DNA from: a virus
Taxonomy: Duplodnaviria > Caudoviricetes
Direction: 5' to 3' (one strand)
DNA length: 64,000 nucleotides
IMG/VR virus record: IMGVR_UViG_3300025902_000014
Span: 1 to 64,000 of that record
A program made the translations under genes and the position numbers. The first letter of the stretch is position 1; the number at the start of each line of letters is the position of its first letter. Below the pieces are notes generated by a model that had not been told where the DNA came from, made no database searches, and was given only the letters and a program-made list of their open reading frames with translations. Positions 18,289 through 53,236 of the stretch are shown here, one piece after another.

Positions 18289-18317
18289 TTGACAGGACGA
18301 GCTTGAACTGACAGAAT
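18289..18317 (+). promoter_or_regulatory. promoter TTGACA-N17-CAGAAT, leaderless ATG 18324
   Basis: same spacing pattern as the other promoters. Confidence 0.65.
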
Positions 18318-18323
18318 AGCCCC

Positions 18324-18761
18324 ATGACGACGAAGAAGCTGGCGGGCCTCTACAGGAAGATGGCCGAGCACACCGGACCCCTCTGTGGGGGTCCGACATG
18401 CTTCAAGAACGCCCGACCCGAGGAGATCCCGCCCAACCGTTGCTGCTCGCCCGAATACTGCGAGATGGCCATCCAGTGGGCCGAGGAGATCCACGGGGTG
18501 AAGCTCGATCGGACCGGGCACCCCACCCTCCCGCTCATGGCCGTCGAGCCCGGGAAGGGCTGCACGGCGGCCCCGCACCTCCGGCCGATCTGCACGATGC
18601 ACGCCTGCTGCATCAACAGCCTCGGGTTCCATCCGGACGACCCGAAGTGGACGGACCGGTACTTCCGGCTCCGAGCCCAGATCGAGAGGTTGGAGACCGG
18701 GGAGGTTCAGGACAGCGGCGACCGGGCAGGTTGGATGTACGACCGACTGGAGGGAGCATGA
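18324..18761 (+). CDS. Cys-rich (metal-cluster/YkgJ-like) protein
   Basis: C-x4-C...CC-x4-C...GC...LRPICxxHxC. Confidence 0.6.
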   Translation: MTTKKLAGLYRKMAEHTGPLCGGPTCFKNARPEEIPPNRCCSPEYCEMAIQWAEEIHGVKLDRTGHPTLPLMAVEPGKGCTAAPHLRPICTMHACCINSLGFHPDDPKWTDRYFRLRAQIERLETGEVQDSGDRAGWMYDRLEGA

Positions 18762-18946
18762 CAAAGAAGGACTTCGAGATCGTGGCCGTGGGGCTCTGCA
18801 TGGCCCGGCCGGACGAGCCCGAGGGCAGCCACAAGTACGAGGCGCGGTACCACACGGTGGCGGTCATGACGAAGACCCTCGCCACCCAGAACCCGCGATT
18901 CAACCCGGAGGCGTTCCGGAAGGTCTGCATGGGGCCGAAGTAGGAG

Positions 18947-19336
18947 GTGACGATGTTCATCTGCGAGAAGTGCCACACCGGACCCCGGCAGGGATTCTGC
19001 GGAGGGAGAGGTTCGTACGGCCCGTGCGAGGGCTGCGGGATCTCCCGGGCCTGCTCGGACTGCCACTGTGACAACCCGTTCAATCGGAAGTCTCCGCCCA
19101 AGCCCGTGGTCAAGAAGAAGCCCGTGACTCGCATCCGCCACGCCGCGAAGTACGTGGTGACCGAGATCCGATACTGCCCGGTCTGCACGACCCCCCGGCA
19201 CGCCCCCGGACCGTTCGATTGCTGCAACGAGGTCATCCTTATGGAGAAGGTGGCCAAGCTCACGCTGGAGAGGCGCAAGCTCCGCAAGCAGGTCCGCACC
19301 CTCAAGGAGCAGTGGGCGAGGAGGAATCTGAGGTGA
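18947..19336 (+). CDS. Cys-rich zinc-binding hypothetical protein
   Basis: multiple CxxC pairs. Confidence 0.6.
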   Translation: MTMFICEKCHTGPRQGFCGGRGSYGPCEGCGISRACSDCHCDNPFNRKSPPKPVVKKKPVTRIRHAAKYVVTEIRYCPVCTTPRHAPGPFDCCNEVILMEKVAKLTLERRKLRKQVRTLKEQWARRNLR

Positions 19337-20054
19337 AGACGTATCGCCGGGTAACCCGGGTACCGGTGGCCGAGCTGGAGTCCGCGAAGTTCAGCGTCAT
19401 GGCCTTCCACATGGGGCAGGCGTGTGCGGAGGTTTTCTCCGCCGCCCAACGTGACCCCCACTACCTCAGCCGGGACATCGAGGTGGAGGTCATCATCCGA
19501 CCGGTGCCCGAGCCCCTCCCGGAGGTGGATACGTGATCTGCCCCCACCCCGGGTGCGGGAAGTCCCTCCACCCGGCCCACAAGGGGGAGTTCCGGGAGAG
19601 CCTCCAGCTCTACTTCTCTCCCCCGGGCCACGACCACGACGACAACTGCCGGGGACGGATCTACGGCTGTGAGGACGGGCACCGCATCCGGGTGTGCGTC
19701 CGCCGGACTTGCCCGGCCCCGGGCTGCGACTGGAAAGGGAAGACCACCTGCTTCTGCCACCCCGGGGAGAAGCTCGACCGGTGGCCGGAGGAGAAGAAAA
19801 GGTGAAGCTGAACGTCTACGTCTGCGACATCTGCGACCAGAGGTTCGAGCCCTCGAAGTACGAGGAGCAGAACCTCAAGCTGAACCTCGCCATCCACGGG
19901 CTCGTCCAGACCTACTACGCGGAGCGAAGCTGGGACCACGTCTGCATCCCCTGCAAGCTGGAGCTGGCCCACGTCATCGAGGTCAAGGTGACCGAGCTGA
20001 AGAACCGCCAGTTCGAGGCCGCCCGAAGGAAAGCGAACGACACCTAGTTTCCAA

Positions 20055-20083
20055 TTGACTTTCCGAGCTTGTACGTGTAAGGT
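20055..20083 (+). promoter_or_regulatory. promoter TTGACT-N17-TAAGGT, leaderless ATG 20090
   Basis: ATG 6 nt after -10. Confidence 0.7.
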
Positions 20084-20089
20084 GGCTGC

Positions 20090-20467
20090 ATGATCCATCC
20101 ACTCACCGAAGCCGAGAACGAAGAACTCCGAGCCCTGCTGAAAGCCCGCGACGACGCCATGGCGGCCAAGACCGCATGGCTCGACAGGAAGATGCTGGAG
20201 CACTCGACCCTGAAGGTGGGGGACGACATGTTCGACCTCGACACGGGGGAGTGCCTCGGGAAGATCACCAAGCTCTACCGGTACTGGAGCCCGGACGCGC
20301 AGGGCCGCCGGGACAACGACACCTCGATCTACTGCGACTATGAGTTCGGTCGGGGGATGAACACCTCGTGCGCCCCGGGGAGGCGGTTCGGGTCCAAGGA
20401 GGACTACATCCAGTCCCTGAAGAACCGGCTGGCCCGGATCGAGGCCCGGAAGGAAGCCCTGAAATGA
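20090..20467 (+). CDS. hypothetical protein
   Basis: behind promoter. Confidence 0.7.
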   Translation: MIHPLTEAENEELRALLKARDDAMAAKTAWLDRKMLEHSTLKVGDDMFDLDTGECLGKITKLYRYWSPDAQGRRDNDTSIYCDYEFGRGMNTSCAPGRRFGSKEDYIQSLKNRLARIEARKEALK

Positions 20468-20667
20468 CGGAAAACGGCTGGGCGTGGCCCCCACTCGCGG
20501 TGAAGTTCCACTACTTCGTCAACAACATGTCCCTGTGCCGGAAGTGGGCATACTCCGGCGAGCGTGATCCTATTCAGGAGATGGGTGAGCAGCCCACAGA
20601 GGTCGATTGCAAGGTCTGCTGGAAGCTGGCTAAGAAGCTGTCGGCTCTCGAAACGTAGGAGCAAGCG

Positions 20668-21408
20668 ATGACGGAGGAAAAGAGGACTCTGGAGACCCTG
20701 ATTCGGGAGATCGGGAAGTGGAACCGGGAGACCTTCCCGGGGAGCACGGTCAAGTCCAAGGCGGAGCACCTCCGGCGCGAGGCCATCGAGCTGGCCGAGA
20801 CCCCCGGGGATGAGAGCGAGATGGCCGACATCTTCATCCTGTGGGCCGGGATCGTGGACCTCTTGGGGGTGGACTACGTCCGGGCGATCGAGAAGAAGAT
20901 GGCCAAGAACTACAAGCGGAAGTGGAAGGCCCCGGACGAGCACGGGGTCATCGAGCACCTCGAAGAGGGGGAGGACGATGCGCCTCCGTCCCCGCCTCTG
21001 AAGACCCCGATCCCGGGTGCCCTCGACAAGGTGAACAGCCATCAGCTCGTCCTCTACGTGAAGAACATGGTCATCGACTGTCTGGCTCCTTTCGCCTACG
21101 AACCGAATGGCTCCAAGACGTGGGCGGGCATGACGACCCGCGTGGAGAAGTTCCTCTACTCCCTCATGGCCAAGCACCTCCTCTCGGATTTCAGGGTCAT
21201 CTGCAACGAGCACACCACGACGAAGGAGATGCAGGCCCGGGGGGAGATGGGGCTGCACCTCTACTACCGTCAGAGGCCCACGCTGGAGTTCATCGGGCTG
21301 CACTTCGTTCTTCGCCCGAACGACACGGAAGAGCCCGTCCAGACCCAGCAGGAAGACGTCGTCATCAACCTCAACCCCCCGTACGACGGGGAAGAGGTCG
21401 GCCCGTGA
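20668..21408 (+). CDS. MazG-like dATP/dGTP pyrophosphohydrolase (DUF550-like) fused to a tail-sheath C-terminal-like domain
   Basis: N-term WNRETFP...HLRREAIE...EMADIFIL...KMAKNYKRKW; C-term VNSHQLVLYVK...FAYEPN...TW...FRVICNE...EFIGLHF. Confidence 0.75.
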   Translation: MTEEKRTLETLIREIGKWNRETFPGSTVKSKAEHLRREAIELAETPGDESEMADIFILWAGIVDLLGVDYVRAIEKKMAKNYKRKWKAPDEHGVIEHLEEGEDDAPPSPPLKTPIPGALDKVNSHQLVLYVKNMVIDCLAPFAYEPNGSKTWAGMTTRVEKFLYSLMAKHLLSDFRVICNEHTTTKEMQARGEMGLHLYYRQRPTLEFIGLHFVLRPNDTEEPVQTQQEDVVINLNPPYDGEEVGP

Positions 21409-22240
21409 GAATCGACGGGATGAAAGTTCCCGGCACGATCAGCCTCCTGTTCTGGCTGGCCGTCATTCTCATTTTCGTGGCCGTGGTATGGGAGACCCGG
21501 GCGAAGCACAACTTCATGAAGGCGTGTCTCGACGACGGCAAGAAAGAGTACGAGTGTGAGGCCATGTGGCGCGGGGGGTACAGGTGATCGAGCCGACGAA
21601 GTGCCCCCTCTGCGGGTGCATCCTCCTGTACGGGAAGTTCGAGTTTACGGGGCACAACCCCGAGACCTGCCAGACGTGGACGAAGGTCCGGATTCGGGAT
21701 CTCGAACAGGCCCTCCAGAATCAGATTCTGGAGACCGCCCGGCTCCGGGACATGATCGCCCGGCACGAGTGCAAGGTGGACTAGATGCTCGATCGGCTGA
21801 ACCAGATCTAGACGTCCTACTGGCTGGGGTTCATCGGGGTGATGAATTTCTCGCTGGGGATGATCTGGTACCTGTGGTGCAAGGACCGCGAAGAGAAGAA
21901 CAGGAGAGTGGAAGAACATGTCCGACGAGAAGCTGCCCGGGGATACGTCCCATCCGATCAACAGCCTCCTGATGCTCGGGCTGCTGGCCCCCGCCCTCCT
22001 GAAGGCGGACATCGAGAAGTCCCAGCTTCGGGCCAAGGCCATCCTCGACCACGCTGACGCCACCCTAGAATCATCCGTCCTCCTCGCGAAGTGCCTCCCG
22101 TTCCTCCGGACGCTGGAGGCCAAGAAGCTCCGGGAGGAAGTTCTGAAGAACCTCGCCCTCGTCCACGAGAAGGCGGAAGTTCGGAAATCCTTCACGCGCA
22201 CGGACGGCTGACGTGACTATCCTCCTGAAGGAGGCCGCCC

Positions 22241-23743
22241 ATGGCCGTCAGGAAGCAGAGTGCCGCAGTCCGAACCCAGTCTGGCCCGGGAGAGGTGGCT
22301 GGTCCCCAGATCGTCAATGGTCTCCAGACGTTCCTCGCCGGTTTTCTCGCGAAGGCCCCGGTCGGCGGGGCGGGCATGGAACTCCTCGTCAACGAGGAAG
22401 AGATCTCCGTGGACCCGGCGGAAACCACCGTCTACTCCACGAAGAAGCTCCTCCCGGCTGCGTCCATCCTCCTCGGGGTGACGGCTCGCGTGACGGAGGA
22501 GATCCTCGACGAGGTCTACGCCGTCGGAGGCATGTCCATCGCCGGGGTCGGGGTTCTCGACGAAGAGTTCATGATCGACAATCAGGGCTTCGTCTTCAAG
22601 CATGGCCGGATCGGGCAGGGCTGGATCAACGGCGTGGCGAGCCCCTACGCGGTCGGTCAGGTTGCCGTCAGTGGCCCGGCGGCTCTGGAAGACACCCTCA
22701 CGGTCGGGGACCAGACGTACACCGTCAAGCCGATCCGGACCGGGGCCGGGGAAGTCACGGGGCTGACGAGCCCCTACGCCACTGGCACCTTCGAGGTGGG
22801 CGGGGCGGTCACGGCCGACACCGAGACCTTCACGATCGGGACCACGGTCTACACGTTCAAGGCGGCTCGGACGGGAGCAGGGGAAGTCACGGTGGGGGTC
22901 ACCCCTGCCGAGACGGCGGCCAACATGATCGCCGCCATCAACCTCGACCAGTCGGCGGAAGTGGTTGCTTCCCTCGTCCCCGAGACGACCACCGTCCTCG
23001 TGACGGCTGTTGCCGCCGGGGCTCCGGGACTTCTCGCCCTCGCCGAGACCACGGCGAACGTTCTCGTGAGCGGGGCCTTCCTCGCCTACCCGGACGTCGT
23101 GACGGCTTCGGACCTCGTGGACAACCTGATCGCCGCCATCAACCTCGACCAGTCGGACGAGGTAGTGGCCACCCGCCCGGACCTCCAGCAGGACATTCTG
23201 GCGCTGAGGGCCGTGGCGGAAGGGGCTCCCGGGGAGCTGGCCACTGTCGCGACCGGGGCGGTCATCTACTGTGCGGAGGCCACCCTGCTCCTGCCGGTGA
23301 TGGATACGGCCACCCTCCGGGCGAACATCATCACGGCCATCAACCTCGACCTCGCGGACCGGGTTGTGGCCTCGGAAGGGGTTGCCCCCGAGGACATCGT
23401 CCTGACATCGCTCGTCTCGGGCACCCCCGGGGCGTGGGCCATCACGAACGAGGGTCCGCTCACGAACATCACCTTCACGGACTTCGAGCTTCCCAGCAAC
23501 GACCTCTCGTGGACGATGGGAGACGAGGACACGCCGGACCGGTTCGGAACGGCTCTGGACAACCGTCTCGGGGCGCAGGTGGTCTACACCGGCCACTGGG
23601 ACACCCCGGCCTTCGAGCAGGAGATGGCATCCTCGATCGGCATCACGACATCGGCCACTCCCTTCACGGGGAAGGTCATCGCCACGGTCTTCGCCCTCAA
23701 GTTCCACCCGGCAGTGGGTGTGGCCCCTCTCGCGCCCGAATGA
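22241..23743 (+). CDS. putative virion structural/decoration protein with internal repeats
   Basis: acidic Thr/Ala/Gly/Val-rich; repeats TLTVGDQTYT/TFTIGTTVYT, RTGAGEVT x2, IAAINLD x3; AAGGAGG RBS. Confidence 0.65.
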   Translation: MAVRKQSAAVRTQSGPGEVAGPQIVNGLQTFLAGFLAKAPVGGAGMELLVNEEEISVDPAETTVYSTKKLLPAASILLGVTARVTEEILDEVYAVGGMSIAGVGVLDEEFMIDNQGFVFKHGRIGQGWINGVASPYAVGQVAVSGPAALEDTLTVGDQTYTVKPIRTGAGEVTGLTSPYATGTFEVGGAVTADTETFTIGTTVYTFKAARTGAGEVTVGVTPAETAANMIAAINLDQSAEVVASLVPETTTVLVTAVAAGAPGLLALAETTANVLVSGAFLAYPDVVTASDLVDNLIAAINLDQSDEVVATRPDLQQDILALRAVAEGAPGELATVATGAVIYCAEATLLLPVMDTATLRANIITAINLDLADRVVASEGVAPEDIVLTSLVSGTPGAWAITNEGPLTNITFTDFELPSNDLSWTMGDEDTPDRFGTALDNRLGAQVVYTGHWDTPAFEQEMASSIGITTSATPFTGKVIATVFALKFHPAVGVAPLAPE

Positions 23744-23750
23744 GTCATCG

Positions 23751-23779
23751 AGCCCCCCGGTCATCTTGATTGGGGGGCT
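23751..23779 (+). terminator. hairpin (terminator) overlapping next promoter
   Basis: AGCCCCCCGGTCA...TGATTGGGGGGCT. Confidence 0.6.
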
Positions 23780-23808
23780 TGACATTTTGATCTTGTCCGA
23801 GGTAGCAT
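23779..23808 (+). promoter_or_regulatory. promoter TTGACA-N18-TAGCAT
   Basis: near consensus. Confidence 0.7.
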
Positions 23809-31280: not shown

Positions 31281-31312
31281 TGATTGACACTTCAAGCTCG
31301 CACTGATAGGCT
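31281..31312 (+). promoter_or_regulatory. promoter TTGACA-N17-TAGGCT, copy 1 of a 32-bp exact repeat
   Basis: TGATTGACACTTCAAGCTCGCACTGATAGGCT also at 34016-34047. Confidence 0.85.
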
Positions 31313-32276: not shown

Positions 32277-32642
32277 ATGTGGTTCCAGAAGTTCATCGCT
32301 CCCGAGGGGTCCGACCTGAAGAGCCAGATCGTTCAGGTGGTCACCGAGGCGCTCAACCTTCAGATCGGCGAGCCGATCGACGACCAGACCTTGGACGTCA
32401 TCGTGGACACCGTCTTCGATGGGGTGGGCGAGATCTATGCCGAGGACTTCCTCGTGGAATGCTCGACCCGTAACAACCCCCCGGACCTCGTGGACCGGAA
32501 CGGCCTCGCTGTCCGGCTCATCTTCTTCGGGGAGGCCCACCCGAAGCCCGATGACCTGTATGGGAAGGTGGACATCCTGTTCGACCCCACGAATGGGAAT
32601 CAGACCCCCAAGGCCGAATGGCTGTCGGAGACCAGACGGTGA
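32277..32642 (+). CDS. stand-alone tail-sheath C-terminal-like fragment
   Basis: GEPIDDQT...DFLVECSTRNNPPDLVDRNGLAVRLIF resembles sheath F-x-V-x-C-D-xx-NN-x-P-xx-ID-x-N-x-L. Confidence 0.6.
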   Translation: MWFQKFIAPEGSDLKSQIVQVVTEALNLQIGEPIDDQTLDVIVDTVFDGVGEIYAEDFLVECSTRNNPPDLVDRNGLAVRLIFFGEAHPKPDDLYGKVDILFDPTNGNQTPKAEWLSETRR

Positions 32643-33061
32643 AGCTCGACGCTGTCCTCTTCATCTGCGACAAGCCGAATAAGAATGGGCGGATCTACTC
32701 CCGGGAGCTGGCGAACAGGATCGTCGAGCGGTTTCACGACATGCCCGATCTGTGCGGGCAGGTGGGGATGCCCGAGGACGGGAAGCTCCTCCTGAACAAC
32801 ATCAGCCACGTGGTCCGGGAGCTGAAGGTGACGGAAGTCGGGGAGGACTGGGGGCTCGTGGCGACCATCGAGACCCTTCCATTGGCAGAGAAGGGGCTGA
32901 CCCTCGCGAAGCTCTTGGAGGACGATGACACCCGCAAGCTCTACACCTTCCGGACTGCCGGAACCGGCACCCTGACCGAGATGCCGGACGGGACCGTCCG
33001 CATCAACAACGACTACGTGTTGGAGTCCGTGAACCTCGTCCCGGCCAAGGACGCCGCGTGA
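32639..33061 (+). CDS. catalytically degenerate gp21-like prohead protease paralog
   Basis: NKNGRIYS, GQVGMP (vs ELDHP), ETLP-KG-L, RTAGTG (vs SSRGEG), SVNLV (vs FDFV) aligned with 51290-53236. Confidence 0.8.
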   Translation: MKLDAVLFICDKPNKNGRIYSRELANRIVERFHDMPDLCGQVGMPEDGKLLLNNISHVVRELKVTEVGEDWGLVATIETLPLAEKGLTLAKLLEDDDTRKLYTFRTAGTGTLTEMPDGTVRINNDYVLESVNLVPAKDAA

Positions 33062-50816: not shown

Positions 50817-51293
50817 ATGCTGAACCGGGTGACCCAAGTCTTCTCCCCGTTCGGGTCGGGGGGCTTTCTCAGGCAGATGGCCGAGGCTGCGCTTCGGAAC
50901 GTCAAGGAGTTTGAACTCAAGGTCGGCTCCTCTGAGAAGAGCCCCTACGACTTCCCGGTGGAGAAGCTCGGGGATCTCATGCTGGTCAGCATCGACGAGG
51001 AAGGTACGGTCCTCCGGGCACGGACCGTCAAGAACTCTCCCGGGAAGGATTACCAGTGGGCGGGTCCATGCACCCCCAAGGCGAATCTGTTCCGTGTCCT
51101 GAAGTTCGTCGGGGATGACCCTCTCGACCGTCAGAAGTTTCTTGACTACGTCTACAACTTCCGGAACGTCCTGATCGACCTCAAGAAGGAAACCATCGTC
51201 GTCATCGACGAGAACACGGCGGAAGCGTTGACGGTCACCAGCGGGGTTCAGGCTCCTCGGGTGGCCGCCATCATGACCGCACTGGGACAGTGA
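50817..51293 (+). CDS. hypothetical head-module protein
   Basis: coupled to protease gene. Confidence 0.7.
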   Translation: MLNRVTQVFSPFGSGGFLRQMAEAALRNVKEFELKVGSSEKSPYDFPVEKLGDLMLVSIDEEGTVLRARTVKNSPGKDYQWAGPCTPKANLFRVLKFVGDDPLDRQKFLDYVYNFRNVLIDLKKETIVVIDENTAEALTVTSGVQAPRVAAIMTALGQ

Positions 51294-53236
51294 TGAGACT
51301 TCTCGAAGCATCTTACTTTGAGGGTTACGAGATCCTCGAAGGCTCGGGCGAGGGGGCCAAGCCCCTGATCGTGCGGGGTGTGTTCGGGCGGGCGAATGTC
51401 AAGAACGAGAACGGACGGATCTACCCGGACAGCGTCTGGAGGAAGGTTCTCTCTGAGAGTTCCGAGGCCATGGGACGAATCAAGTCCCGGAACTTCTTCA
51501 GCGAACTCGACCACCCGGACGATGGCCGGACTCTTCTTCAGCGTGTGGCCGGACTGACCACGCGACTGGAGATGCGTCCCGACTGGGCCGTGTACGGTGA
51601 GGCGGAGATCCTCCCGACCCCGGCGGGGAAGATCCTCGAAGCCCTTTTCCGCTCGAAGGCCAAGATCGGCATCTCTTCGCGTGGGGAAGGGGATCTCCTG
51701 AAGACCGAGTCTGGTGACATCGTTCAGGAGAACTTTGAACTTCAGGCATTCGACTTCGTCCACAACCCCTCGACTCAGGGGGCCTATCCCAACCCCGTCT
51801 TCGAGCATCTTCTGGCCCGAAGGACAGGAGATCGAATGATGGATCTGATGGAAGAGTTCAAGGCACTGGAGAGGTCCGTCCTCGAACTCGTGAACCTGAA
51901 GCCCTCGGAGGTGTCCGCCGCCATGCGGCCCCTCGTCGAGCGTCAGGCGACCGAGACGATGGTCAAGCTCTCCAAGCTGTCCGAGTCGGCGGGGGACATG
52001 AAGCCCCTGTTCATCGGACTTCTCTCCGAACTGAACACCGCTCGTCGTCCTTTCGTCCGTCTGGGCGAGAACGACGGCGGCAACTACCACCCGGGGCTCG
52101 TGGACAAGCTCCTCGCGGCGACCAACACGGCCAAGGCCGGTGAGGCCGGAAGCGTCGAGGCCCTCCCCGCGACGGTGGAACCCGACTCTCTCCCCCTCAT
52201 CCCCGGCGCGGACCCGAAGGCCGTGGGTGAGTCCAAGACCGAAAAGACCCGCAAGGAGGAAGCCAAGATGGCCGAGGCCGCGAAGAAGAATTCCATGAGC
52301 AAGGCCCTCCGGTCGGCGATCCGTGAAGCCGAGGACGAGCTGGATCAGATCGCCACCGACGAGAGCGAGGACGAGACCGCCCTCGCGGCACAGGAGGCGG
52401 CGCAGAAGTGCGAGTCCCGGCTCCTCAAGGCCGCCCGGAAGGTCATGGAGGGGGACGGCGCGAACCTCATGCCCGACTCCTACGAGCCCGCCGAGCCCAA
52501 GGGCGAGGAAGAGATCGGCGAGTCCGAGGACGGTGACGAGGACGACGTCCCGACCCTCACGGCGTCCGACGACGACGAGAACCAGTTCGGCGAGGACGAG
52601 AACGGCCCGCCGCCCGAGATTCAGGCCAAGATCGACGCCAAGGAGTCCAAGCGCAGGCGGCCCTCCGCCCTCCGCCGGTTCTCCGAGAGCGACGACGACA
52701 GCATCGACATCCCGGCCCCTCCCAAGGAGGAGGCCGAGACCGAGCCCACGGACGACGACGGTCAGCCCCTCCCCCCGATGGAGGCGAAGATCGTCAAGAC
52801 CTACCGCAAGCTCGTCCGCGAGAACCGCCGGATGCGCTACGAGGCGAGGGTCACCGAGGCCATCGCGGCCAAGGCCATCGCCAAGCTCACCCGCAGGGTC
52901 CGCGCCACCGAGGCGGCCCGCCCGTCCGCCCCGGCCTTCATCGTGGCCGGTGGCCAGAAGATCCCGGTCAAGGTGGCCGGGTCGGTCATCGAGTCCCTCG
53001 TCCGCCGCTACAAGGAGCTGAAGAAGACCTCCGGCGGCAAGGTCACGGAGTCCGCCGGTTCGCCCGACCCGGGCAGCATCTCCGAGGGTCCGTTCGGCGT
53101 TCCGTCGTTCGCCAAGGTGGGCAACGTCGCCCGCCTGAACGAGGCCGCCACGGCCGGACGCAAGACCGAGAAGTCGATCCTCGAAAGTCAGGCTGAGCTG
53201 GGTGCCCGCGTGGCCGCCCGGATCGGTCGGGTCTAA
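51290..53236 (+). CDS. T4 gp21-like prohead protease fused to acidic scaffold/core domain
   Basis: NENGRIYP, ELDHP, ILPTPAGKIL, GISSRGEG, FDFVHNPSTQGA; acidic coiled-coil C-terminus; directly upstream of MCP. Confidence 0.92.
   Translation: MMRLLEASYFEGYEILEGSGEGAKPLIVRGVFGRANVKNENGRIYPDSVWRKVLSESSEAMGRIKSRNFFSELDHPDDGRTLLQRVAGLTTRLEMRPDWAVYGEAEILPTPAGKILEALFRSKAKIGISSRGEGDLLKTESGDIVQENFELQAFDFVHNPSTQGAYPNPVFEHLLARRTGDRMMDLMEEFKALERSVLELVNLKPSEVSAAMRPLVERQATETMVKLSKLSESAGDMKPLFIGLLSELNTARRPFVRLGENDGGNYHPGLVDKLLAATNTAKAGEAGSVEALPATVEPDSLPLIPGADPKAVGESKTEKTRKEEAKMAEAAKKNSMSKALRSAIREAEDELDQIATDESEDETALAAQEAAQKCESRLLKAARKVMEGDGANLMPDSYEPAEPKGEEEIGESEDGDEDDVPTLTASDDDENQFGEDENGPPPEIQAKIDAKESKRRRPSALRRFSESDDDSIDIPAPPKEEAETEPTDDDGQPLPPMEAKIVKTYRKLVRENRRMRYEARVTEAIAAKAIAKLTRRVRATEAARPSAPAFIVAGGQKIPVKVAGSVIESLVRRYKELKKTSGGKVTESAGSPDPGSISEGPFGVPSFAKVGNVARLNEAATAGRKTEKSILESQAELGARVAARIGRV

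Follow-up and report, generated by a model that had tools for sequence, protein, structure and literature searches.

A dATP/dGTP pyrophosphohydrolase-type domain joined to a tail-sheath C-terminal domain of an orphan lineage in an uncultured T4-like phage

Why would a nucleotide-pool enzyme of a phage end in a piece of contractile tail sheath, and is such a protein real? The question is raised by one open reading frame (ORF), at 20668-21408 on the + strand of a 64,000-nucleotide stretch of viral DNA (the window; positions 1 to 64,000 of the IMG/VR record IMGVR_UViG_3300025902_000014). Its 246-residue product, here called P0001, is made up of a MazZ/DUF550 enzyme domain, a linker, a sheath C-terminal domain and an acidic tail, as seen with profiles, alignments, an AlphaFold2 (AF2) model and Foldseek. 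An initial annotation had proposed a MazG-like/DUF550 part and a sheath C-terminal domain in this ORF, with a Pro-rich linker between them, and the profiles, the alignment and the fold bear this out. Taken together, we hold it to be very probable that the fusion is real, that both domains are correctly identified, that the added part forms a cassette and that it stems from an orphan lineage of sheath domains.

The source record is 96,313 bp long, with a CheckV completeness of 67%, a GC content of about 64% and nearly all genes on the + strand. It encodes a Gp23-type capsid protein (PF07068, E 3e-58), a T4 gp21-like prohead protease and SbcCD-like nucleases, and judged by these genes the phage is therefore an uncultured T4-like myovirus. 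The exact P0001 protein was found on three contigs, the longest of 144 kb, and the full genome is probably about 144 kb.

The two domains and the junction between them

The N-terminal domain (residues 12-100; 20701-20967, + strand) is an all-alpha nucleoside triphosphate (NTP) pyrophosphohydrolase domain that includes, as is typical of MazZ, two short beta strands at its C-terminal end. PF04447 (dATP/dGTP pyrophosphohydrolase, formerly DUF550) matches it with 45.5 bits against a cut-off of 23, and scores 47.6 bits in P0002, a 97%-identical 246-residue allele from a separate Logan assembly; several PHROGs of the dATP/dGTP pyrophosphohydrolase kind match as well. The MazZ of cyanophage S-2L (PDB 7ODY) matches the same half by sequence (HMMER, E 5e-7) and by fold (Foldseek, template modelling (TM) score 0.74-0.79, root-mean-square deviation (rmsd) 2.3-2.8 Å). 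In the AF2 model, which was built from a 33-row alignment and has a mean predicted local distance difference test (pLDDT) score of 74.9, this part forms four helices and a short hairpin over residues 8-98 (helices 8-82, strands near 85 and 97). Structure matches in BFVD fall into the same two classes as the other evidence and include the DUF550 protein of Acinetobacter phage SH-Ab 15497, which has been tested biochemically; with it, and with the S-2L enzyme (TM 0.78, rmsd 2.6 Å to 7ODY), P0001 shares the all-alpha MazG-HisE fold and the two extra C-terminal strands.

S-2L MazZ is a homotetramer in which E34, E35, E38, E50 and D53 bind the metal ions, the transition state is stabilised by R83, and the pocket is lined by K76, N80 and W85 (PMC8342488). 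The HMMER alignment places E33/E38, E51, D54, K77, N81, R84 and W86 of P0001 at the metal and pocket positions, so that the acidic ligands and the counterparts of K76, N80, R83 and W85 appear to be aligned. The register is ambiguous near MazZ E35, opposite which P0001 has H34; a shift of three residues would set E38/E41 on E35/E38. P0001 has the pattern AEHL..EA.EL...EMAD in common with the relatives P0003-P0005. The metal and pocket residues of MazZ thus appear to be kept, and the P0001 enzyme is probably active, as judged from these alignments. PurZ was not found in the 96-kb record, which is 67% complete, so nothing points to a Z-genome pathway and the enzyme, unlike that of S-2L, is not evidently part of one. 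The described MazZ/DUF550 members also differ from P0001 in having no C-terminal sheath domain; where DUF550 is known in a fusion, its partner is DUF5664 or an EaA-type N-terminal region (PMC12884076). Scans of IMG/VR and of metagenomes with P0001 returned only distant relatives of the N domain.

The enzyme is followed by a linker (residues 101-115; 20968-21012, + strand) which is acidic and then Pro-rich and is disordered in the model (pLDDT about 50, and below 50 for residues 109-115), in agreement with the linker first proposed. Behind it stands a tail-sheath C-terminal, or handshake, domain with two helices and a three-stranded sheet (residues 116-215; 21013-21312, + strand), recognised from both sequence and model. 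The domain search called for at the outset assigned the N half to PF04447 and the C half to PHROG tail-sheath families and to the PF17482 region of the phage's own sheath. The families phrog_10581 (E 6e-12) and phrog_23 (E 7e-10) match residues 113-232 by their extreme C-termini. PF17482 itself scores 12.1 bits in P0001 and 17.8 bits in P0002, below its cut-off of 26.9 bits. The own sheath is a separate 839-residue protein carrying PF04984 and PF17482, encoded outside the window at G000:C1:66250-68769, and its residues 728-827, exactly the PF17482 domain, align without gaps to residues 116-215 of P0001 (31% identity, E 2e-15). A T4-type gp18 matches the C half by residues 541-645 of 659 in a sequence search of the PDB (E 3e-4).

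The fold of the C-terminal part, which the initial annotation had predicted to be that of a sheath, is indeed present. The AF2 model runs helix-helix-strand-helix-strand-strand over residues 122-215 at a pLDDT of about 90, with residues 220-246 disordered, and the domain superposes on the sheath subunits of T4, Klebsiella phage KP1, the Photorhabdus virulence cassette (PVC) and the antifeeding prophage (AFP) with an rmsd of 1.9-2.8 Å over 89-99 residues (Foldseek; PDB entries 6RAP, 6RBN, 9F4A and 6J0B). The motifs ALDxVN, EPN..TW, DFRVIC and EFI.L.F of the sheath C-terminal domain (T4 gp18 about 541-645, PF17482) are kept. The fusion matches only the last 110 or so residues of sheaths and is without their N-terminal arm, PF04984 domain and protrusion domains; P0001 is thus not a sheath protein, and differs from gp18-like sheaths in having this one domain, a sub-cut-off Pfam score and an origin in a separate clade, while the C domain is homologous to PF17482 domains. 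The protein ends in an acidic, Pro-containing tail (residues 216-246; 21313-21405, + strand; pLDDT about 40), which in the alignment stands where the short C-terminal arm of a sheath would be and is about 20 residues longer.

The stretch was found in runs of about 12 studies of anaerobic digesters, activated sludge, wastewater and groundwater, and contigs of four of these runs (X2, X4, X5 and X6) were compared with window positions 20400-21700. Some of the runs are labelled RNA; these are probably DNA or viromes and were treated as contigs only. An 11.8-kb contig of X2, an activated sludge which may be the source sample, covers the whole stretch with 0 differences, and a 2.9-kb contig of X4, from a different digester study, covers 20400-21172 and spans the junction, also with 0 differences. 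A 166-nt contig of X6, from groundwater, runs from the linker into the C domain (20966-21131) with three differences. Since contigs from independent samples and a diverged allele of the same architecture span the junction, neither faulty assembly nor read-through caused by a sequencing error accounts for it. The coding signal is also unbroken: at third codon positions the GC content (GC3) comes to 0.95 for the N domain, 0.88 for the linker and C domain together and 0.90 for the tail, in line with the genome, which argues for a single continuously coding frame. The concern raised in the initial annotation, that relatives might encode the two parts as separate ORFs, finds no support either, as the relatives have either the same fusion (P0002) or no C domain at all (P0003 and the short alleles described below). 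A chimeric contig, or a lost stop codon joining two genes, which would make the fusion an artefact, is in the face of the bridging contigs, the shared architecture of P0002, the unbroken coding signal and the lack of any separate C-domain ORF behind the enzyme in relatives an explanation of negligible likelihood. By eye, no internal in-frame start with a ribosome-binding site was seen upstream of the C domain. The groundwater variant has, in addition, a 15-nt in-frame insertion directly after the start codon of the fusion gene, at window position 20671.

The cassette and the orphan lineage

The dominant contigs of the wastewater run X5 do not have the sheath domain, and the fusion form occurs there at a depth of only about 2. 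Compared with the window, the dominant X5 allele is without an in-frame segment of 429 nt (20959-21387, + strand) that comprises the linker, the sheath domain and most of the tail. In the contig with the greater depth (record 8, 70.6) position 20958 is followed by 12 other bases, then by 21388-21408, then by a further 12 other bases and 21600, and the short allele encodes a 107-residue enzyme ending in ...EH-EPDE-GEEVGP. Its downstream flank has 15 differences in 101 nt and is far more diverged than the upstream part of the stretch in this run, where the dominant strain differs from the window at 2 of 531 bases. This suggests, from comparison of the flanks, that the short allele of record 8 arose by mosaic replacement rather than by simple deletion. 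In the other contig (record 7, depth 36.5), 20978 is followed by 51 other bases and then by 21584, the GTG start of the next conserved gene, so that 20979-21583 is skipped.

The short alleles lack not only the sheath domain but also a small ORF, P0006 (21420-21587, + strand; 55 residues, GC3 0.85), with one N-terminal transmembrane helix and two Cys residues. Family searches gave no match for it, and it probably belongs to the same cassette. Because near-identical phages are without 20959-21387 and this small ORF, the domain is dispensable, and the sheath domain and the small membrane ORF form a dispensable cassette. The closest enzyme relative outside the species, P0003 (74% identity), ends in ...EHIEEG and a stop where the linker of P0001 begins. 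From this we infer that the enzyme-only gene is ancestral, and that the linker, the sheath domain and the small membrane ORF were inserted later at its 3' end. A word-based search for shorter relatives found none, the short allele being known from the X5 contigs alone, and an IMG/VR scan with P0003 returned no relatives.

From where, then, was the added domain drawn? An exhaustive HMMER search with residues 113-246 against 1.84 billion cluster representatives gave 462 matches at E <= 1e-3, nearly all of them sheath C-termini. The best match after P0002 is P0007, a protein of 239 residues with 45% identity and the domain at residues 128-231; after it come full sheaths of 500-1260 residues at 30-36% identity, and the own sheath stands only at about the 133rd place, with 31%. 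Some ten short matches are genuine short proteins rather than sheath fragments, and all of them pass the PF17482 cut-off. P0007, P0085, P0130, P0104, P0042, P0045, P0060 and P0041 have the same domain as P0001, fall in the same clade and have a short or unrelated N-terminus; they differ from P0001 and P0002 in that only the latter two have an enzyme in front.

The architectures of these orphan proteins vary. P0007 has an unrelated small beta domain before the sheath domain and P0041 (203 residues) an uncharacterised N-terminus; P0045 and P0060 (165 and 152 residues) have a short N-terminus and a C-terminal extension, and P0104 and P0130 (121 residues each) are stand-alone domains. P0042 (157 residues) begins with MTISRREFLK and P0085 (145 residues) with MNRRKFL, in both cases a start like that of a twin-arginine translocation (Tat) signal (SRREFLK and RRKFL), followed by a hydrophobic stretch; these starts hint at export of a sheath-type domain. 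P0007, P0085 and P0041 retain a sheath-like C-terminal arm. Proteins of the orphan clade were seen in metagenomes only.

In P0007, independently of the fusion, another small phage protein is thus joined to this sheath domain. In its AF2 model the small beta domain is followed, after a disordered linker, by a confidently predicted sheath domain that has one more strand at its C-terminus. The N-terminal part of P0007 occurs alone at five IMG/VR loci, in ORFs of about 130-220 residues that all end shortly after. This partner family has the motifs YACWYPQMGGY and WHDG.FPF...HHC and no annotation (for instance L006 3314-3715 and L007 7863-8270), and in L006 its gene stands between the terminase and portal genes. 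A link of this N-terminal domain to PF04984, raised by features in the ESM Atlas, was set aside, with 97-129 shared features against a usual count of at least 170 between true relatives.

Trees of the domain, of about 100 residues, were made from 151 rows with a quick method and from 55 rows under LG+C20+F+G4. P0001 and P0002 are joined first by P0007 (support 100/97) and next by P0085 (99/87), and the own sheath lies deep within a well-supported sheath clade. The ten orphans cluster strongly, requiring 2-3 label changes against 9.4-11.7 in shuffled data, a count to which 0 of 500 shuffles fell. Of the bootstrap trees 48% show them as monophyletic, and because of the long branches a single origin of the orphans is uncertain. 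On this comparison of sequences, the C domain is not a recent copy of the own sheath, and is placed in a separate orphan clade.

The fusion has no counterpart among cultured phages: of 50,697 records 532 match P0001, none with both halves and none covering at least 80% of the query. With a stand-alone orphan as query, 2,297 of the cultured-phage records match in one place each, always a sheath. IMG/VR scans with P0085, P0130 and the capsid protein gave no relatives. In the ESM Atlas many clusters of viral proteins of 106-137 residues have the same features, which we take as a lead only. Among the candidate orphans, a 'hypothetical protein' of a Stenotrophomonas jumbo phage was rejected as the C-terminus of a 715-residue unannotated sheath, and short matches with an upstream NPI...GQKT motif were rejected as fragments of real sheaths. 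P0024 (423 residues) joins an uncharacterised N-terminus, a sheath C domain (183-281) and a fragment of a T4-type portal protein (PF07230 positions 245-308); it may be a chimera or another mosaic of structural-protein pieces and was left out of the conclusions. In the open-access literature we found nothing on free or fused sheath C-terminal domains or on the combination of the two domains. Each of the two domains is well known individually, and what is new is the domain architecture, which exposes an undescribed family of orphan domains.

Possible roles of the added domain

In assembled sheaths the handshake domains form the mesh, each beta sheet being completed by linkers from neighbouring chains (PMC8195476). 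The C domain of P0001 retains the helices and the three-stranded acceptor sheet, that is, the C-terminal part of the handshake domain. The initial annotation had offered a self-polymerising enzyme as one possibility; this is unlikely, since with no N-terminal arm or sheath body, and with neither PF04984 nor the protrusion domains, the protein cannot propagate a sheath lattice. Its two other suggestions, an enzyme tethered to the tail and an anti-defence protein, are possible, and both have to be read in the light of a promoter unit far from the tail genes, of dispensability and of an orphan-lineage origin.

The gene belongs to an accessory region rather than to the baseplate module, and to a transcription unit headed by a sigma70-like promoter (18289-18317, + strand; TTGACA-N17-CAGAAT, with a TG). 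Such a host-type promoter suggests, by analogy with T4, early or middle expression of the fusion gene. The T4 late-promoter motif TATAAATA is absent from the window.

The reading that we favour, at a probability of about 0.45 and so slightly short of even odds, is that P0001 is an active early nucleotide-pool enzyme carrying a dispensable module that binds sheath arms, as a dock or as a cap. The N-terminal 100 residues make up a complete MazZ/DUF550 enzyme, which most likely works as a tetramer and splits pyrophosphate off dGTP and/or dATP (or off a related NTP); tetramer and substrate are proposed from homology to S-2L MazZ and the DUF550 protein of SH-Ab 15497. The host-type promoter would drive this enzyme, probably early in infection. 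At the extreme end of its gene the cassette would have been inserted, bringing in a flexible linker, the handshake domain and, downstream, the small membrane ORF, the domain coming from an old orphan lineage whose members stand alone or behind other small phage proteins. The C domain may accept, and perhaps donate, a strand, and could thus bind the beta-strand arms of gp18-type subunits or the free ends of the lattice. The sheath in question would be the phage's own or that of a rival, and docking or capping would set the enzyme on sheath protein or on sheath ends. In a tetrameric enzyme the fused C domains would be multivalent. Substrate, timing and binding partner in this scheme are thus inferred. 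In concept it resembles the T4 gp25/TssE initiator, a small non-sheath, handshake-like protein that engages sheath subunits at the end of the lattice, and a weak fold match to gp25 was obtained (5IW9; E 0.16, TM by target 0.54). P0001 differs from gp25/TssE in having no sequence relationship to it and no PF04965 match, in being encoded outside the baseplate module, in its fusion to an enzyme and in its dispensability.

Several observations weigh against a sheath-binding module. The own sheath gene lies about 45 kb downstream of the host-type promoter unit and of the fusion gene, and enzyme and sheath may be timed differently. The Tat-like starts of P0042 and P0085 suggest targets outside the cytoplasm, where contractile sheaths do not assemble. 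Nor can the long C-terminal tail of P0001 be clearly recognised as a sheath arm. Moreover, the two alleles P0001 and P0002 differ by Q126R, G148D, G154D, A168T, K169Q, L235P and P238R; all seven differences lie between residues 126 and 238, and residues 1-112 have none (Fisher p = 0.013). Of the base changes behind them, four were read directly (21044, 21169, 21371 and 21380); the other three, deduced from P0002, are all that the difference counts of the contigs still allow. Over P0002 and the compared contigs, which span about 396 nt of the C half, all seven coding changes are non-synonymous and no synonymous change was seen. These differences fit relaxed constraint as well as adaptation, and are too few to separate the two. 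At two of the positions P0002 has the sheath-consensus residues R126 and D148, whereas P0001 has Q126 and G148. The P0001 allele has thus drifted from the consensus that P0002 keeps, which fits its lower Pfam score.

Part of the same evidence can be read as interference. The orphan domain would then mimic the most conserved part of gp18-type proteins and act as a decoy, soaking up or blinding a host immune sensor of sheath protein or poisoning the assembly of a co-infecting myovirus, a tailocin or a type VI secretion system (T6SS)-like machine, with the enzyme as a second, independent counter-defence activity. An acceptor sheet without an N-terminal arm has the geometry of a chain terminator, the unit is of sigma70 type, probably early, and away from the structural genes, and the genome holds other small copies of structural domains (a second sheath-C-terminal-like ORF and a prohead-protease paralog, see below). 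Presence/absence polymorphism and fast amino-acid change are, in addition, typical of conflict genes; the divergence statistics are, however, too small to claim positive selection. No defence or anti-defence family was matched and no sheath-protein sensor was found in this analysis, we know of no sensor of sheath protein, and the Tat-like relatives are ill-suited to interference in the cytoplasm. On balance we consider an interfering decoy unlikely.

To much the same degree we find it improbable that the cassette is a neutral or decaying mosaic, in which a mobile orphan domain is tolerated by way of the flexible linker and has no sheath-related role in this phage. The existence of near-identical phages without the cassette, with the short form dominating in X5, would be expected of such a mosaic, as would allele differences that all lie in the C half and all change amino acids, and the loss by P0001 of consensus residues to a score below the Pfam cut-off. 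A decaying domain would, on the other hand, hardly be so confidently folded in the model, and the lineage has stayed open and foldable in several architectures and over a sequence divergence of 55% or more. P0001 and P0007, 45% identical and both with confidently modelled domains, clearly point to long-term maintenance of the lineage; the GC3 matches that of the genome, and the long form occurs in several independent studies and habitats.

Less probable again is a generic binding or oligomerisation tag, in which the orphan domain would serve as an adaptor that accepts a beta strand of a non-sheath partner, for example the downstream membrane protein or a periplasmic target. The Tat-like or transmembrane-like N-termini of P0042 and P0085, the co-variation of the 55-residue membrane ORF with the domain and the diversity of the N-terminal partners would suit such an adaptor; against it, the closest relatives retain sheath-like motifs and the C-terminal arm, and no partner was identified.

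It is tempting to extend the favoured dock-or-cap module to the whole orphan family, although we regard the extension as doubtful. Orphan handshake domains would then be unrecognised accessory modules aimed at sheath lattices, as terminators or caps or as decoys for sheath sensors, and would serve as address tags on small proteins; here the tag would deliver a tetrameric deoxynucleoside triphosphate (dNTP) pyrophosphatase, as one of several structural-protein mimics in the genome. If the orphan domain does bind sheath arms, contractile machines would have in it a portable tag or terminator of natural origin, of use in studying and engineering sheath assembly in phages, tailocins, extracellular contractile injection systems (eCIS) and T6SS, and it would indicate that phages are in conflict with one another, or with their hosts, at a new level, with structural proteins at its centre. 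If the domain is inert, the locus still illustrates cleanly how the insertion of cassettes lets accessory genes of phages acquire domains and lose them again.

Neighbouring genes and other sheath-like sequences

A profile of the domain matches the phage record in three places, namely the sheath (E 2e-47), the fusion (E 1e-43) and, weakly, a third at 32325-32525 (E 1.2e-4). The third lies in a stand-alone ORF of 121 residues (32277-32642, + strand) that weakly resembles the sheath C-terminal domain and is far more diverged (own sheath residues 745-804, E 2e-5; hidden Markov model of the C domain 15.8 bits, E 9e-5), and for which no Pfam or PHROG match was obtained. Its length is that of P0104 and P0130. 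A small ORF at 32618-33061 has a match in phrog_207, a family of head-maturation proteases (E 7e-7, profile positions 35-134), the real protease being encoded far off, at 51290-53236.

The other members of the fusion-gene unit are small ORFs without a family match, several of them Cys-rich, and a 500-residue repeat protein. Among the small ORFs upstream of the fusion (18324-20658), several have many cysteine pairs of the CxxC type and in this are zinc-ribbon-like. The last gene of the unit (22241-23743) encodes the 500-residue protein, with repeats around AAINLDQS.EVVA; it has no Pfam or PHROG match, and an IMG/VR scan with it gave no relatives. The unit ends at a terminator-like hairpin with a T run (23748-23782, + strand), and the next TTGACA promoter starts at 23779.

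Matches to TTGACA-N15-19-TANNNT on the + strand of the window number 12, against 0.14 expected; the CAGAAT hexamer of the promoter heading the fusion-gene unit lies outside this stricter pattern. The 12 sites span positions 8280-56171 and share an extended motif (TTGACAGTTC.A.CTTG...), and the two that lie at 31284 and 34019 have the same 29-nt sequence.

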